Below, piece by piece: positions 1,304 through 9,274 of a stretch of 64,000 bases of DNA (its first letter is position 1; every line of letters starts with the position of its first letter). This DNA comes from an uncultured Clostridium sp. GTDB lineage: Bacteria > Bacillota > Clostridia > TANB77 > CAG-508. A program made the position numbers and the translations under genes. The stretch lies in the NCBI GenBank assembly GCA_948465565.1, contig CAOJXR010000002.1, forward strand, positions 87,139 through 151,138, given 5' to 3'. The notes beneath the pieces were generated by a model that saw nothing but the letters and a program-made list of their open reading frames with translations, was not told the origin of the DNA and did not search any database.

Positions 1304-2125
1304 TCATTTTTGACAAATTATTACTCTATCTTGATTGTTATAATCTTTTATGCATTTTATATTTTTATAATTTTCTTTTTCTAAAATTTCACTCACATCT
1401 TTTTTTTGATTATATCCTATTTCAAAGCATAAGAATCCATTATCCTTCAGATGTTCTTTTGCTTTTTTTGATATTCTTCTATAAAAATCTAATCCATCTT
1501 CTCCACCATCTAATGCTAAAGCTGGCTCTTTTTTTACTTGTTCATCTAATACAAGCATATCTGCTTTTGTTATATATGGTGGATTTGATACTATAATATC
1601 AAAATTATTTTCTTGGATATTTTCAAATAGGTCTGATTTTATATATTGTACTTTTGCTTTATTTTCTATAGCATTATACTTAGCTATTTCCAGGGCTTTT
1701 TCGCTAATATCTGAAGCATATACACTTGAATTTTCTATTTGTTTAGCAAGAGTTATCCCTATTATTCCACTTCCTGTACATAAATCTAGTACTTTCATAT
1801 CTTTTGATGATATTTTTAATATTTCTTCAATTAATACTTCTGTATCAAATCTTGGAATTAAAACATTTTGATTTACTTTAAATGTATTTCTAAAAAACTC
1901 TTGATTTCCTGTTATGTACTGAATTGGAATGTTGTTTAGTAGTTGCTCTATCCCTTTATTAAATTTTTCTTCTATTTCTTGACTTAACTCTTCTTCATCG
2001 TGAGAAATTAAATATTCTTTTTTCACTCCTAGTAGACTGCTTAATAGAATTTTTATTTTTATATTTTTATCTTCTATATTATTTATTTTTTTCATTCCAT
2101 AAATAATTGCATCTTTTATTTTCAT
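1304..2125 (-). CDS. prmC: Release-factor glutamine N5-methyltransferase PrmC/HemK
   Basis: 273 aa with IPRFDTEVL, the [11 protein letters not shown]-binding motif and the NPPY catalytic motif. Confidence 0.8.
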
Positions 2126-2164
2126 AATGCCTCCAACGTTATTATTCTAGCATTTTTGCTCTTT

Positions 2165-2215
2165 ATTGTAAAGAAAAATCAGCTGATTGCTTGAGTCAGC
2201 TGATTTCGTATCAAA
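2165..2215 (-). terminator. Rho-independent terminator (minus strand) just upstream of prmC
   Basis: Inverted repeat aatcagctga..tcagctgatt followed on the minus strand by TTTTTCTTT. Confidence 0.45.
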
Positions 2216-2219
2216 ATAA

Positions 2220-2410
2220 AAATGCCCCACATTAGCCGTCATGTAAAGAATTTTTATGGACCTGTCCTAAAACAGGTGGGTGCCGTCCTAAATATTCCTG
2301 GGTTTCTTACATAAATGCAAGCATACACGCCATACTCAGAGAAATCTGGCTCCCTTCTCCAAAACTTGTAGGTTCTAAAAACTCTGTCAAAAACGCACCA
2401 TGCAGGGAAG
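2220..2410 (-). ncRNA. Candidate structured ncRNA or non-coding GC-rich island of unknown class
   Basis: About 190 nt of clearly elevated GC with no ORF above 30 aa on either strand. It contains local stems (acctgt..acaggt; ggtgggtgcc) and is immediately followed on the minus strand by the terminator at 2165..2215. Confidence 0.25.
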
Positions 2411-2695
2411 ATTATTAACTATTTACTTACTATGTTTATATAATACCATAACTGTTTTTGAGTTTCAAATTCTTAATTTCTCGTTTAATATTATTTAATT
2501 GATTGTATTTATATTTTTCTCTTTTTTTCTTCTATTATTCTAATTTATTTATGCAATTTTAATATTTGATTTTTTTAATTTTATATTGTATATTAAAAGG
2601 TGTAGAGAATTTAAAAAAGACATTTTTTGACAAAATATACAAAAAATCCTAATGAAATTTATTCATTGGGATTTTATTATTATAATTGTTATATA

Positions 2696-3577
2696 TTAAA
2701 ACTTTGGAACATATTTTTCTTCGTCCTCTTCTAGTTCTTGCATATAGCCATTTTCTATCCCAAGTTCATATAAATAGTTCTCTATTTCTTCATATTCTTG
2801 TTTGGTTAATTTTCTATTTATTTCTTTATCTTCGCATGCTTTGTATGTTGGAAAATATTGTGCCATTAAGCTTATAGTTATGTCGTTTGGCATATTATCT
2901 TTTATCCATTTTAATATGTTTTTTGAATTTTGAATATTATTTGGTAATACTAAATGTCTTATTATCATTCCTTTTTTTAATAAGCCATTCTCATCATATT
3001 CATTTTTTCCAACTTGTTTATACATTTCTAATATTGCCTTTTCAGTTACTTCTCTATAATCTTTTATTCCAGATAATCGTAAGGCTAAATTGTTATCATA
3101 GTATTTGAAATCAGGTAAATATATATCAATATATCCTTCTAACTTTTTTAAAGTTTCTATTGTTTCATACCCACTTGTGTTATATAAAATTGGAATTTTT
3201 AATCCTTGCTTTTTAGCTAACTTAATCGCTTCAATTACATGTAATACATATGGCGTTGCGGTTACTAAGTTTATATTATTTGCTCCTTTTTGTTGCTCTT
3301 CTAAAAATATCTCTGATAGTCTTTCTATTGTGATTTCTTCTCCCTTACCTTCACAACTTATTTTATAGTTTTGACAGAATTTACATTTTAGATTGCAATT
3401 ACTAAAGAATACTGTTCCAGAACCTTTTTCACCACTTATACATGGCTCCTCATCATAATGTAGTGAGTATAATCCTAATTTTATTTTGCTTCCTGCTTTA
3501 CATTTACCTAGTTCACCTTTGTTTCTATTTATTTGACATTGTATTGGACATAATTTGCATTTTTCTAATTCTTTCAT
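2696..3577 (-). CDS. Radical SAM protein, PflX-like (pyruvate formate-lyase activating enzyme homolog)
   Basis: 293 aa with an N-terminal Cys cluster (CKLCPIQC) and the radical-SAM motif CNLKCKFCQN. Confidence 0.7.
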   Translation of the reverse strand: MKELEKCKLCPIQCQINRNKGELGKCKAGSKIKLGLYSLHYDEEPCISGEKGSGTVFFSNCNLKCKFCQNYKISCEGKGEEITIERLSEIFLEEQQKGANNINLVTATPYVLHVIEAIKLAKKQGLKIPILYNTSGYETIETLKKLEGYIDIYLPDFKYYDNNLALRLSGIKDYREVTEKAILEMYKQVGKNEYDENGLLKKGMIIRHLVLPNNIQNSKNILKWIKDNMPNDITISLMAQYFPTYKACEDKEINRKLTKQEYEEIENYLYELGIENGYMQELEEDEEKYVPKF

Positions 3578-3660
3578 TTTCTCACCTATTGCATATTATA
3601 TATTTTTTTATCTTTAAAATCAATCTGCTAAGAATATCTACCTTTTTATAAATAGCAAAA

Positions 3661-3690
3661 GCCCGGCTGACAAGTCAGCCGGGCCGGAGC
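3661..3690. terminator. GC-rich hairpin terminator downstream of the 3698..4012 gene
   Basis: Perfect stem gcccggctga-caag-tcagccgggc flanked by T-rich sequence on both strands. Confidence 0.55.
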
Positions 3691-3697
3691 CTTTTGC

Positions 3698-4012
3698 TCA
3701 GATATACTGTGCGTGATGCCGGAAAGCATACCACTTGCCGCCTTCCTCGAAGACACCTTCGTGGCTTCCGCCAGGGCAGTACCAGCCATCGGTGATATAC
3801 GGGTGGCTGTCTCTGATTTTCTTCAGCTCACTACGAGCCTCATCTTCATTATCGAAGCCAGCAGAGCTGATGAAAGTTTCTTCATAGACCTTTTTCAAGG
3901 TCTGAAGTTCATTGCGCAGGGTTTTAGGCAGGGGGCTGTCATACACCAGCTTCTGTACAGCCGACCGTGTTGTCGCCTCTTGAACATAAGTCCAGGTCAT
4001 CTTGTAAGCCAT
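3698..4012 (-). CDS. Hypothetical 104-aa protein in a high-GC island
   Basis: ORF MAYKMTWTYVQEATTRSAVQKL.. with AAGGAGG 7 nt upstream of the ATG. GC is far above the surrounding sequence, and the gene has its own terminator. Confidence 0.5.
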   Translation of the reverse strand: MAYKMTWTYVQEATTRSAVQKLVYDSPLPKTLRNELQTLKKVYEETFISSAGFDNEDEARSELKKIRDSHPYITDGWYCPGGSHEGVFEEGGKWYAFRHHAQYI

Positions 4013-4078
4013 AATAGCTCCTCCTTAAAATTAGTACACTATTATTATAACATGTATTTACATAATTTTCAATCTTTG

Positions 4079-4438
4079 TTATTCTCTGAACTCTTTTGCT
4101 AATTTACTAATTGCTTTACTTTCTATTCGTGATACATATGATCTAGAAATTCCATAAATGTCAGCAACTTCATTTTGAGTAAGTGGTTTTTCGTTATTAA
4201 GACCAAATCTCAAAATTAAAATTTCTTTTTCTCTTGGTTTTAGCGTTGTTTCCATTTTCTCGTATAATTTCTTTTGCTTTAGTTTTAAATCAATTGCGTC
4301 TTCTATACTTCGCTCGTTGTTTTCTAGTATCTCTTGTAATGTAATGACGTTATCATCTTTATCTTTTCCAATTGGTTCGTTTAAATATACTTCTGAATTT
4401 AATTTTTTTGAGTTTCTGAAGAACATTAAAATTTCGTT
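4079..4438 (-). CDS. sigK: RNA polymerase sigma-K factor, C-terminal fragment downstream of the intervening element
   Basis: The translation ..EILMFFRNSKKLNSEVYLNEPIGKDKDDNVITLQEIL..ILRFGL..GISRSYVSRIESKAISKL matches sigma-K regions 3-4. The in-frame codons upstream of the annotated Met read IANEIL. Confidence 0.8.
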   Translation of the reverse strand, partial: NEILMFFRNSKKLNSEVYLNEPIGKDKDDNVITLQEILENNERSIEDAIDLKLKQKKLYEKMETTLKPREKEILILRFGLNNEKPLTQNEVADIYGISRSYVSRIESKAISKLAKEFRE

Positions 4439-6126
4439 TGCAATTCTCCCCTGTTGGAAAAATCATCTTTAATATTTCTTGCACCTATAAAATTAATAGT
4501 TATATTCTCTCCATCACTTGTAACTGAACTAATTAGTAACTTTATCATATTTCTTTTTGTATTTAAGTCTAATGTATCAAATGATGTAAAATATGTATCA
4601 AATATGTTAAGTAACATATTTGCAGTTTCTGTATCATTTATTTCATCGTAATCTGTATTAGTTAATTCTTTTATTCTTTTTTCTATTTCTGCATTTGCTT
4701 GTTTTAATCTTTTTATTTCTTTTGATAGGTCATCTAACAATGAAATATCAACATATTTAATTTTGTCTAGTAATAAAGAAATGTCATTCTCATTTTTCTT
4801 TAATATTGTTTTTAAGCTTTTTAGCTCTTCACTGTTTTGGTTATTTTCATTAAAAGATTTTGATGCTATATTTTTTAGCGCCTTATAAAATTTAGAATCT
4901 GGCATTGCTAGTTTCTTTATTTCTTCCATTACTAAATCATCTGCTTCTAAACCATTAATATTTTTACATTGACATTTTTGCTTTTTACTTTTATCTTTTA
5001 ACTCACACATATAATCAAATACTCTACGACCATTGCTGTCTACTGTTTTATTTTTTAATTTTGCTCTCATAAATGAACCACAATGAGAACATCTTAATAA
5101 TCCAGATAATAGAGCATTACTTGTGCTTGGTTTTCTATATTTCATATCACGGTTTCTATTTAATAAATTTTGTACTTCTACCCATTCTTTACCTGAAATA
5201 ATGCCTTTATGTTTTCCTACAGCAACTATCCATTCTGTTATATCTTTCTTTTCTACCATATTATTTGACCCAGTTTGTTTAGTTTTATTATATACCATTA
5301 AACCTTGTGTTCCATTAAATTCTTTTTCATCTGCATATATTTCAATTCCAAAGTTCTTAAAGTATTCTAATGTATCTTCATCTGCCATTGCATAAACAGG
5401 ATTAGTTAGAATATTAGTTAATGCCCATCTCGTATATAATTTTCCATTCTTTGTTTTTATATCGTTTTGAATTGTATAAGTTTCTAATTTTGTTAATGAT
5501 TTTAATTCTAAAAATTTATGAAATAAACTTTTAGAAATGATAATTTCATCATCAATAGGAGATAATTTATATAATTTTCTTTTCTTATTATCTATAGTAA
5601 TATTTTCTATTTGTTCAGATTTAAAACCTGTAGGAGTTGTACCTCCTAACCAACGACCAGTTTTGGCAAGCTCAATCATATTATCTCTTATACGTTCTGC
5701 AATAGTATCTCTTTCTAATTGTGCAAATACTGAAATCATAAACATCATTGCTCGTCCACTCGGAGTTATATTTTCTATACTTTCTGTAGCTGATAAAAAG
5801 GAAACATTATAATTATCAAATTCATTTACTAAGCTACTAAAGTCGGATACATTACGACTAATTCTATCTAATTTGTAAAAAACGACAGTGTCGATTTTTT
5901 TATCTTTAATGTCTTTTAGCATTCTTTGAAATGATGGTCTATTAGTATTATATCCAGTATATCCTTCATCTTCATAAATAATAACGTCATTATCTAAGTC
6001 AATATTGTCAAATGTTAATTCTATTTTTCTTTTACAAGCTTCTATTTGATTATGTGTGCTTTCTCCTTTACCTGTGAATTTTGATTTACGTGAGTATATT
6101 GCTTTTTTTCTAGTTTCTTTTACCAT
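4426..6126 (-). CDS. Large serine recombinase (SpoIVCA-like)
   Basis: 566 aa with an N-terminal resolvase domain (AIYSRKS catalytic Ser region, VVFYKLDRISRN), a recombinase domain and a C-terminal zinc ribbon (CSHCGS..CQC). Its stop codon overlaps the sigK junction. Confidence 0.85.
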   Translation of the reverse strand: MVKETRKKAIYSRKSKFTGKGESTHNQIEACKRKIELTFDNIDLDNDVIIYEDEGYTGYNTNRPSFQRMLKDIKDKKIDTVVFYKLDRISRNVSDFSSLVNEFDNYNVSFLSATESIENITPSGRAMMFMISVFAQLERDTIAERIRDNMIELAKTGRWLGGTTPTGFKSEQIENITIDNKKRKLYKLSPIDDEIIISKSLFHKFLELKSLTKLETYTIQNDIKTKNGKLYTRWALTNILTNPVYAMADEDTLEYFKNFGIEIYADEKEFNGTQGLMVYNKTKQTGSNNMVEKKDITEWIVAVGKHKGIISGKEWVEVQNLLNRNRDMKYRKPSTSNALLSGLLRCSHCGSFMRAKLKNKTVDSNGRRVFDYMCELKDKSKKQKCQCKNINGLEADDLVMEEIKKLAMPDSKFYKALKNIASKSFNENNQNSEELKSLKTILKKNENDISLLLDKIKYVDISLLDDLSKEIKRLKQANAEIEKRIKELTNTDYDEINDTETANMLLNIFDTYFTSFDTLDLNTKRNMIKLLISSVTSDGENITINFIGARNIKDDFSNRGELQTKF

Positions 6127-6269
6127 TATTTCGTTCCTTTCCTACATGTGATATTTGTAATAGTTTATCACTTTTAACTTAAAAAGTCTATAAAAATAGA
6201 TGCAAATATTAAATTTACATCTATTTTCTCGTAATTTCTATTTAACAATTTCATGAAATAACATAATTA

Positions 6270-6575
6270 TTATTTTAATTTTTCAATTTCTCTCATAGCT
6301 TTCATTCCTAGGTAGTATCCTAAAGCAATATAATAATTTGTAATTTCTGAATTATATCTAGTATATTTATTTAATATTTTTCTCTGTGATTCATCAAAAT
6401 AATCCAGTAAATGAATTTCAAGTTCTCTAAATTCATCTTCCAAATCATTGTATTGGCGATTTCTTCGTAACACCTTCATATTATCGATTACTTTTTCATT
6501 AATTAGTTTTATATCTAATTCTGAAAAAATAAAACTAGGCTTTTTTTCTTCTTCCATAATAAATTCCTTTCTCAA
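6270..6575 (-). CDS. Hypothetical protein (element cargo)
   Basis: 101-aa ORF with no recognisable motif. Confidence 0.35.
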   Translation of the reverse strand: MRKEFIMEEEKKPSFIFSELDIKLINEKVIDNMKVLRRNRQYNDLEDEFRELEIHLLDYFDESQRKILNKYTRYNSEITNYYIALGYYLGMKAMREIEKLK

Positions 6576-6676
6576 ATTATATGATTTATTTTGTTTTACG
6601 CATACGCTTTGTAGGTGTTTGTGACTAAAAAAATAATATTTACTATATAATCACACAAACTATAGTAGGTGATGTA

Positions 6677-6895
6677 ATGAAATTTATTGCAAATGATTAT
6701 ACTCCTAAAGAGATAATTCGTATAATTAGAGAATGGACTGAATTAACTCAAAAAGAATTCGGTAAAACTATAAATCGTAGCGAAAAAGGTATTCAAGCAT
6801 TTGAACTTGGTACTAGAAATTATGATATGGCTACTTTAATTCAAATTGCTAATACGCATGGTATAAAAATAATTATAGAAAAGAGAGAAAAATAA
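6677..6895 (+). CDS. Small XRE-family HTH regulator
   Basis: 72 aa with a helix-turn-helix pattern (LTQKEFGKTINRSEKGIQAFELG). Confidence 0.55.
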   Translation: MKFIANDYTPKEIIRIIREWTELTQKEFGKTINRSEKGIQAFELGTRNYDMATLIQIANTHGIKIIIEKREK

Positions 6896-7040
6896 TAATG
6901 TTTTTCTTTCTTTTTTTATATATTGTTATTTGCAAAATATTATTTACTTTTATAATGCAACATCTACGTTGTCTATAATACCACATAATTATTATAAAAT
7001 CAACCTATAATAATTATTGAACGTTGGGAAAAGATATATT

Positions 7041-7298
7041 ATGAAAAATACAATAAAATATAAAGGCAAGCTTAATGCTATTGGTAATAAAATAAAAGAT
7101 TATCGAAAATTGAATAATATGACACAAAAAGCACTTTCAGAAAAGTTACAATTATATGGTATTGACTTAAATAAGAACTCTTTACAGAAAATAGAAAAAG
7201 GAACTAGAATTATAAAAGAATATGAACTTGCTGCTTTTTGTAAGGCATTTGATGTTTCTGCTGACTTATTATTAAAGGATTGTATTGATGAATTATAA
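7041..7298 (+). CDS. XRE-family HTH regulator
   Basis: HTH motif MTQKALSEKLQLYGIDLNKNSLQKIEKG. The ATG at 7041 is preferred over the upstream TTG at 7017. Confidence 0.55.
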   Translation: MKNTIKYKGKLNAIGNKIKDYRKLNNMTQKALSEKLQLYGIDLNKNSLQKIEKGTRIIKEYELAAFCKAFDVSADLLLKDCIDEL

Positions 7299-7349
7299 TA
7301 GTTACTGTTTATATAAGATAAAAGAATTTATGCTTTTATCTTTTTATTT

Positions 7350-7715
7350 TTATATAATTCTAGCAATTTCTTCAATTATATTTTTATTAGTAAAAATATA
7401 TTCATCATAATCAAATCCAAAAATCCTTTTAAAATTCTTAACTGTTTTTTCTTCTATCCTATGGTCTATTGCATATTTTATAGTCATCTTTATTTGTGAT
7501 ATATTAAATGATTTATAGTTCTCTTTAATTAATGAGTATATGTTATCAATAATTATAAATTCTGTATTGCTATTATAAACATATTTGATTGCTTCTATTA
7601 GTAATATTGTTCCCTTGTGACTAGTGTTTAATCCCAAAGAACGTAGGATATCTCTAATTAGAATATCTTGTTCATTTTTTGTTTTTAAATTACTTTCATA
7701 TTGTACACTTTCCAT
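7350..7715 (-). CDS. Stand-alone Spo0A C-terminal DNA-binding-domain-like protein
   Basis: The 121-aa protein aligns along its length with the Spo0A effector domain: SHKGT~HIKGY, LLIEAI~YLREAI, VYNS~VYND, IFGF~LFGY. It has no receiver domain. Confidence 0.6.
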   Translation of the reverse strand: MESVQYESNLKTKNEQDILIRDILRSLGLNTSHKGTILLIEAIKYVYNSNTEFIIIDNIYSLIKENYKSFNISQIKMTIKYAIDHRIEEKTVKNFKRIFGFDYDEYIFTNKNIIEEIARII

Positions 7716-7810
7716 CTCTTCCCTCCATAAAAATTTATATCAAAAAGAAATTATTTAATTGTATCTATTCTTTATGTTATTAATATACCAACTTTATGTA
7801 AACATTGCAA

Positions 7811-7950
7811 AATAATAAAATCTGCACTACATGCATTGAAATATGCGTGTAATGCAGATTTTACTTTGGTTTTCAGCTGTTCTATAATATAAATTACTAA
7901 TATCTTATATAAATAAAAAAATATTGCGTGCTACGCAGATTTAAAAATAA
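7811..7950. promoter_or_regulatory. Cluster of related inverted and direct repeats (operator-like) plus a hairpin terminator
   Basis: aaaatctgcact..tgcgtgtaatgcagatttt forms a hairpin. A near-direct copy attgcgtgctacgcagattt occurs about 75 bp downstream. Confidence 0.3.
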
Positions 7951-8557
7951 AACATGGGAACTAAACCAATGAATAAAATTCCCATGTTCTACATTTTAGG
8001 TCTTAATCCCTAAAATATATAAATTAATCCAAACTATTGCGAGTAGTTTAGAGTAATTATTAAAATTATAATTGATATTTCTATAAATATCAATAGATTT
8101 AGGGGGAATTGTTCCCCCTTCAGCTTGAATGGCTTATATTTCATCAACGATGTTATATACTGGAAATCCTCCTGGACTTCCACCATCTAGGAAAATTCTG
8201 TTTTTCATTGGTTTAATTTCCTTATATTAAAATCTATCAAGTAAAAATTCAATATTAATTAATACAGGAAATAAACCAATAGTTTAAAATCTTGTATATA
8301 TAAAAAATCCAGGCACTCGCAATGCCTGAATATCATTATTGAACATCAAGCATTACGCTTGTGGAATGGATTAATTAATTAAGATTTTAATGCCATTCTT
8401 TTTACTATATTTAGTTATTTTTATTATACTACTTTTAATCAATATTTTCAAATTTTATTCGCTGTGTTTGCTGATATATCTTGTTTTTATTGATACTTTA
8501 CATAAAAAATGTTATAATTAATATGTAATTTTTATTAAAGAAAGTGGTGGTATACTT

Positions 8558-9274
8558 ATGTTTAATAAAAAAGATTTTGGTATAAAAATTAAAGTTGCTC
8601 GAAAATCCAGAGGTTTAAGTCAAGAAAATCTGGGAAAAGCAATAGGAAAAAATGCTACAACAATAGGAAGATATGAATCTGGAGAAATTATGCCAGACGC
8701 TGAACAAATTAGCTTGATTTGTGATGAATTAGGAATAGCTGAATATGAATTATTTGATACCTCTAGTAAAATATTAAATAAAGAAAATAATAGAAATCCT
8801 TTTAATACAAACAAGTTATATTTATTTTATAAAGCTTTTTATCCTAAAAGCAATAATTATAAAAAAGGGAAATTTATATTGGATATAATTGAAAAACCTG
8901 ACTGTTGTAAGGTAAATTTTGTAGATTATAAAACTAACAAAATTTATTTATCTGGATATATGATGTCTGATAGTAATGTTGCTATATTCATTTTTGAAAA
9001 TTATAAAGAAAACAATTTAAGACTGGAGGTTTCGGAAATTATATTAAATATTGCTAGAGGAACAAACACTCTTATGTTAGGTAGTTTTCATTGTACAAAT
9101 GGAAATTATGAACCTTCTGTTAGACGTTGTATGATTTCCACAGAGGATATTGATTTTTCTGATGAGATGTATAGAAAATTAGAAATTACTGATAGAGAAC
9201 TTGAAGAATTAAAAGCAAAAAGTATATGGTATGTTGATGTCGTTGATAAATATGATTTTGAAGATAATATTTAA
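8558..9274 (+). CDS. XRE-family HTH domain protein with unknown C-terminal domain
   Basis: N-terminal HTH (LSQENLGKAIGKNATTIGRYESGE); the 238-aa C-terminal part has no motif I recognise. Confidence 0.55.
   Translation: MFNKKDFGIKIKVARKSRGLSQENLGKAIGKNATTIGRYESGEIMPDAEQISLICDELGIAEYELFDTSSKILNKENNRNPFNTNKLYLFYKAFYPKSNNYKKGKFILDIIEKPDCCKVNFVDYKTNKIYLSGYMMSDSNVAIFIFENYKENNLRLEVSEIILNIARGTNTLMLGSFHCTNGNYEPSVRRCMISTEDIDFSDEMYRKLEITDRELEELKAKSIWYVDVVDKYDFEDNI

Follow-up and report, generated by a model that had tools for sequence, protein, structure and literature searches.

Predicted attachment sites and crossover dinucleotide of a putative mobilizable element that interrupts sigK in an uncultured Clostridium

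How is the sigK gene of an uncultured Clostridium sp. interrupted, and at which base pair would the interruption be undone? In the window, i.e. the whole 64,000-nt stretch of DNA analysed here, sigK lies on the minus strand in two pieces, with breaks at 4437/4438 and 13285/13286 and an 8,846-bp element between them. The element is inserted at nt 340/341 of the gene, in codon 114 (CIEN|EILM, region 2), at the C-terminal edge of the Sigma70_r2 match. A sequence-only reading had proposed that the two junctions are the attL and attR sites of a serine recombinase, with 24-nt inverted arms just inside each junction and strand exchange at a TT dinucleotide. The features concerned are as follows.

4079..4436, minus strand: 3' portion of sigK, from the rest of codon 114 to the stop codon (Pfam Sigma70_r4)
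4426..6126, minus strand: large serine recombinase (LSR) of 566 residues (Pfam Resolvase, Recombinase and Zn_ribbon_recom)
4437..4438, unstranded: predicted crossover dinucleotide TT, copy at the sigK-3' junction
4439..4462, unstranded: predicted att arm (attP half-site) on the element side of the sigK-3' junction, within the 3' end of the recombinase ORF
4439..13284, unstranded: intervening element of 8,846 bp; excision together with one copy of the TT would remove 8,848 bp
13261..13284, unstranded: predicted att arm (attP half-site) on the element side of the sigK-5' junction, an inverted 20/24 match to 4439..4462
13285..13286, unstranded: sigK-5' copy of the predicted crossover dinucleotide TT, which reads AA in gene orientation
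13285..13625, minus strand: 5' portion of sigK, codons 1-113 and the AA of codon 114 (Pfam Sigma70_r2)

The arms are as the sequence-only reading had described them. The arm at 4439..4462 reads tgcaattctcccctgttggaaaaa, and the one at 13261..13284, taken as its reverse complement, reads tgcaattatcacatgttggaaaac; they are identical at 20 of 24 positions, and the bases and the TT at 4437-38 and 13285-86 are those reported. This degree of identity was reached by only two of 2,000,000 random pairs of 24-mers drawn from the AT-rich region, i.e. a chance of ~1e-6. In a scan of 120 x 120 registers around both junctions, the best register was 4439/13284; owing to the symmetry of the centre, 4438/13285 scored equally. 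A generic inverted-repeat scan returned 1,676 pairs, and the att arm pair is not among the 25 longest in this AT-rich DNA; its significance thus comes from its position and identity rather than from its length.

We then compared the predicted excision product with natural alleles. Joining the flanks at the TT yields a 699-nt ORF coding for a protein of 232 residues that contains ...YISRCIENEILMFFRNSKK... (CIENEILM). The joined protein passes the SigK equivalog model TIGR02846 (302.8 bits for a cutoff of 298.65) and fails both SigE equivalogs. Exact-sequence look-up found this predicted 232-residue SigK on 84 public contigs, and the split sigK fragments on 272 and 280 contigs. Hence, the proposal that exchange at the TT restores a canonical sigma-K reading frame is borne out by sequences that exist in nature, both for the exact joined protein and for the attB DNA.

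Ten of the loci coding for the joined protein share the window's neighbouring genes and are empty sites of the same species. In all ten, the natural gene differs from the reconstituted one by 0-1 mismatch in 699 nt, with none at the joint, and the predicted attB DNA is present base for base. With 1438..4438 fused to 13287..16287, the predicted product of excision has 6,002 nt, and its alignment to these ten loci is gap-free, with 99.7-100.0% identity: the element is missing, and nothing else has been gained or lost. Taking out 8,848 bp at the proposed TT hence recreates exactly an allele that occurs naturally in the same species. Both portions of the interrupted gene, the 5' one ending at the crossover dinucleotide, are identical to the corresponding parts of uninterrupted sigK (in loci L138-L147 for the 5' portion). 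The best 80 genome matches to the joined protein are all uninterrupted sigK genes, and the nine closest, from uncultured gut Clostridia (79-89% identity), encode exactly KGVKLSTYISRCIENEILMFFRNSKKLN, with no insertion or deletion.

The element was also found in two other loci, L128 and L132, at 99.7-99.8% identity. In L132 (1..9780), spoIIGA and a sigE-like 5' end are joined to the window's sigK within the SIGTIGLIKG motif, and the same element follows. We considered an independent insertion into sigE and rejected it, as ~90 nt of sigK flank lie on each side of the element and the switch to sigE falls inside the conserved SIGTIGLIKG. L132 is most likely an assembly chimaera.

The reading frame of the product is a less stringent guide to the crossover than had been claimed. 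According to the sequence-only reading, other crossover points would insert two to four residues into the conserved segment. This does not hold for two of them: exchange at the neighbouring TT (4438-39 and 13286-87) gives the same product, and in-register exchange at the shared 'aatt' gives a protein of the same length with CIENAILM. The latter protein is absent from the protein collection by exact-sequence look-up. These two alternatives are excluded by natural alleles and by comparison within the family, and not by the reading frame alone.

For the family comparison, we used the six complete elements for which both junctions are available, namely those of the window and of L110, L120, L150, L151 and L154, which carry differing cargo and lie in different host sigK genes; the junctions of L150 were read off the printed sequence. 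Counting in gene orientation from the first A of the AA, the block shared by both junctions extends from -1 to +1 in the window and L151, from 0 to +8 in L110 and from 0 to +3 in L120, L154 and L150. No dinucleotide other than the AA (TT on the plus strand) is shared by the two junctions in each of the six elements. The intersection of the six shared blocks thus places the crossover at 4437-4438 and 13285-13286, on the premise that cleavage by related recombinases (57-80% identity) occurs at an equivalent position. Next to the crossover, the sigK flank reads cgaaatt (tgaaatt in most hosts) and is similar to the tgcaatt of the element arm (4437..4445 and 13278..13286), and this resemblance accounts for the 9-bp direct repeat shared by the junctions of L110.

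In the window taken by itself, both junctions share a TTT (4437-39 and 13285-87), and the proposed TT cannot be told apart from its neighbour at 4438-39; it is the family comparison that upholds this part of the earlier proposal. A staggered cut at the neighbouring TT, with the same sites, enzyme and products, also falls inside that TTT and is permitted by the sequence. We consider it very improbable, since the base matching 4439 differs between the two junctions in L110, L120, L150 and L154 and since this dinucleotide is one base away from the symmetry centre of the rebuilt attP. That centre coincides with the AA/TT at 4437-38 and 13285-86, which we retain as the crossover. The TT is non-palindromic and has the same plus-strand orientation at both junctions; thus, exchange would delete the intervening DNA rather than invert it.

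The rebuilt attP site is nearly palindromic over ~46 bp, with the organization ttccaaca-N6-aattgca-AA-tgcaatt-N6-tgttggaa, and is predicted to contain gagaattgcaAAtgcaattatcac. The assignment of the arms as the P and P' half-sites of a serine-recombinase attP agrees with their conservation among relatives. Fifteen arms from nine related elements yield the half-site consensus TGCaattnTCACnTgtTGGAAa, whose spacing from the AA/TT is constant, and the arm at 13261..13284 is conserved in the six N-side arms of related elements. The motif TTCCAAC-N11-GCA beside the AA is exact in eight of nine related elements, the exception being L150 with TTCCACT. As in LSR attachment sites, two imperfectly inverted attP half-sites surround a central dinucleotide, and the 2-bp overlap is identical in both partners. 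LSR attP sites are ~50 bp long, and the zinc-ribbon motif is displaced by ~5 bp in attB half-sites relative to those of attP. Here, of the 20 informative positions of the arm consensus, 11 are matched by one attB half-site and 7 by the other. By inspection, TGTT-like words are shifted inward by 2 bp on one side and outward by 8 bp on the opposite side, with no consistent offset between attB and attP.

The protein encoded next to the sigK-3' junction has the three domains expected of an LSR. Its N-terminal catalytic domain matches PF00239 (E 5e-34, residues 9-159), and its C-terminal part matches PF07508 (E 5.5e-15, residues 193-325) and the zinc-ribbon family PF13408 (E 1.6e-12, residues 339-404). 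In an alignment with SpoIVCA, the segment AIYSRKS, with its YSRKS motif, corresponds to AIYVRVS, the motif of the catalytic serine, which places this serine at residue 15. The ORF crosses the junction, so that its last three codons (TKF) and the stop codon are sigK flank sequence (4426..4438). In the circular form, the ORF is predicted to encode 575 residues and to end with ...GELQMQLSHVGKRSGN.

Numerous relatives of this LSR were found at 57-80% identity. In all eight relatives whose genomic context was retrieved, the sigK 3' fragment adjoins the recombinase gene, with the LSR directly upstream. None of the relatives is in IMG/VR, and the nearest phage recombinases are ~40% identical; therefore, no phage attP can be used for comparison. 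The PDB matches cover the catalytic domain only, so that protein-DNA contacts cannot be mapped. In the related element L151 (15761..17495), also present in L152 (8948..10682), the LSR is called as two ORFs of 165 and 430 residues, which suggests a frameshift; judging from its sequence, this copy may be inactive. In L110 (12055..14194), a ParE/Phd toxin-antitoxin pair and a second LSR of 469 residues lie directly downstream of the sigK 3' end and may represent another element.

We next analysed the remaining content of the element, whose GC content is 24% for 29% in the window. Its main genes other than that of the LSR are as follows.

7350..7715, minus strand: ORF for a protein of 121 residues with a Spo0A C-terminal DNA-binding domain only (PF08769, E 7.7e-8, full profile length)
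9642..11039, plus strand: RadC/DUF3846 protein, cargo
11475..12455, plus strand: MobV-family relaxase, cargo (Pfam Mob_Pre; NCBIfam NF041497, 131 bits for a cutoff of 100)
12763..13272, minus strand: protein of 169 residues with two helix-turn-helix domains (Pfam HTH_3 twice), co-oriented with sigK and directly downstream of its 5' fragment

The element also encodes further HTH regulators. No phage structural, packaging or lysis genes were found: PHROGs matches are to transcription regulators or families of unknown function only. Together with the absence of LSR relatives from IMG/VR, this argues for a mobilizable island rather than a prophage. The element combines a recombinase with a relaxase above its cutoff, and no type IV secretion or conjugation genes occur among its ORFs; thus, it would need a helper for transfer. 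We therefore class it, from its gene content, as a putative small integrative mobilizable island and not a prophage. At least nine related elements, six of them complete, are integrated at this site in hosts with differing sigK sequences, and their cargo varies. The Spo0A-like ORF has a counterpart of 123 residues in the related element L151 (12394..12765). Such an effector domain devoid of a receiver, on an element residing in a sporulation gene, could affect entry into sporulation.

The genes for the recombinase and for the two-HTH protein are the only ones common to all six complete elements. The latter is at the same end in all six, with 40-83% identity and 36 invariant columns between its products. 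Its start codon in the window, an ATG at 13270..13272, lies inside the att arm. Among the six elements, four have this start 15-18 nt away from the crossover, and in two it coincides with the crossover or is close to it. No obvious Shine-Dalgarno sequence was found for it in 13261..13296, and there is no room for a promoter inside the element. In the integrated form, its transcription may then depend entirely on read-through that originates at the sigK promoter. The ATG at 13294..13296, within the sigK flank, opens a longer ORF whose frame is not that of sigK. The sigK promoter fires in the mother cell in known spore-formers. We tentatively propose, as a rather doubtful reading, that the two-HTH protein acts as an excision switch or directionality factor whose synthesis depends on transcripts reading through from the sigK promoter. 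If so, the interrupted gene would itself set, through its promoter, the time of excision, and in the excised circle the two-HTH gene would follow that of the recombinase, with attP between them.

Altogether, we consider it highly probable that the two junctions represent the recombinant attachment sites of an integrative, mobilizable element of 8.8 kb, with LSR-mediated exchange at the TT of 4437-38 and 13285-86. This interpretation builds on the observed sequences, the non-random match of the arms, the exact natural empty site and the dinucleotide shared by six elements. In the proposed mechanism, the LSR would bind both element-side arms and the sigK flanks, with recombinase dimers on attL and attR. 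Staggered cuts of 2 bp at the TT, followed by subunit rotation and religation, would then give an intact sigK gene with attB and an 8,848-bp circle with attP. The excision direction would require a directionality factor, and excision would be restricted to the mother cell during sporulation. How the DNA is cleaved, the requirement for a directionality factor and the mother-cell timing are inferred by analogy with LSRs and with the skin elements of B. subtilis and C. difficile (PMC5025042, PMC6957869).

We searched for the circular form. The attP consensus and a degenerate 28-nt pattern covering attB, attP, attL and attR gave no match in IMG/VR. In metagenomes, the degenerate pattern gave 28 matches, all in distant attB-type sigma genes; the window's own junctions were also missed in that collection, so this negative result carries little weight. 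The 575-residue circle-form ORF is not in a 15-billion-protein collection by exact-sequence look-up. As neither a circle junction nor this ORF was found, the empty sites could be never-occupied alleles rather than excision products. Taken further, the element might be a fixed remnant that no longer excises, with ancestral empty sites and a permanently broken sigK in its carriers, as the failure of the IMG/VR patterns and the protein look-up to detect the circle would allow. However, we deem this very improbable. The exact LSR is present on 37 contigs, and two full-length variants nearly identical to it account for another 75 and 44 (156 in total), the identity of both sigK halves to the uninterrupted allele argues for continued selection, and the related elements at the same site in different hosts indicate that integration has recurred. 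The large number of recombinase contigs, the sigK halves identical to the intact gene and the repeated colonization of the site argue that the system is active.

Excision might also serve horizontal transfer rather than follow a sporulation timetable, sigK being a conserved safe landing site. The presence of a MobV relaxase with no phage genes and the distribution of the element, present in some members of the species and missing from others, are consistent with this explanation. Nevertheless, an element that breaks sigK, the gene of an essential late-sporulation sigma factor, would be lost from a spore-former unless it were excised in the mother cell, and all well-studied sigK-intervening elements are excised there (PMC5025042, PMC6957869). 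Transfer as the sole purpose is possible but not likely. The two explanations are not mutually exclusive, and the assignment of the att sites is the same in either case.

The skin element of B. subtilis is a 48-kb defective prophage, in contrast with the 8.8-kb element described here, a predicted mobilizable island. The present element has features of skin-type elements: the interrupted gene is sigK, precise removal of the element restores an intact gene, and its own site-specific recombinase is encoded beside one junction. In both, sigK is split in the RCIENEILM motif by an element that encodes an LSR (SpoIVCA in B. subtilis, with Skr as the directionality factor), and imperfect inverted repeats of ~21-24 bp lie beside a short direct repeat, the known or, here, predicted point of exchange; in skinBs, a 5-bp repeat is next to a 21-bp imperfect inverted repeat (PMC5025042). 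At the one skinBs junction available, the sigK 5' fragment reads RCIENEI before skin, which places that junction a few base pairs downstream of the one here. The recombinases also differ. SpoIVCA (P0180, so named by UniRef) has 25% identity to the LSR over 548 residues and does not qualify as its orthologue. Furthermore, spoIVCA is convergent with the 5' part of sigK, whereas the recombinase gene here is co-oriented with sigK and adjoins its 3' part.

In C. difficile, skinCd has 22-bp imperfect inverted repeats at attL and attR, and its excision yields attB and an attP circle; the recombinase CD1231 suffices for integration, and excision also needs the directionality factor CD1234 (PMC5025042). 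As here, the LSR gene adjoins a sigK fragment. However, CD1231 is not among the LSR relatives of at least 57% identity, and skinCd, skinCt and PhiS63 insert near nt 427 of sigK, between the Pfam domains (PMC3442830, PMC7192596), rather than at nt 340/341. PhiS63 of Clostridium perfringens is a functional siphovirus that integrates into sigK and excises precisely (PMC3442830). Its 10-nt core GTAATGAAAT (PMC3442830) contains AATGAAAT, as does the target here in most hosts, the site being GNEI near nt 427 in PhiS63 and ENEI at nt 340 here. In Bacillus cereus ATCC 10987, the gin element is a small non-prophage element that interrupts gerE, a mother-cell sporulation gene (PMC5595907); its target gene differs, and the abstract of that report mentions no relaxase among its cargo. 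In the literature covered, which is incomplete, we found no paper describing a mobilizable sigK-intervening element.

The element is a well-supported new example of the textbook skin-type element, and the established picture is unchanged. It indicates that a mobilizable island, and not only a prophage, can occupy the sigK niche. Based on sequence comparisons, its recombinase is a distinct lineage that has converged on nearly the same sigK bases as skinBs; unrelated recombinases have thus come to target almost the same few base pairs of the gene. The analysis also illustrates that reading a sequence can by itself place the crossover of a serine recombinase to the base pair, in agreement with public data. 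Finally, attB, an attP of ~46 bp and the central dinucleotide are now defined for a large, unstudied family of recombinases from gut Clostridia, and these att sites may be useful as a site-specific integration tool.
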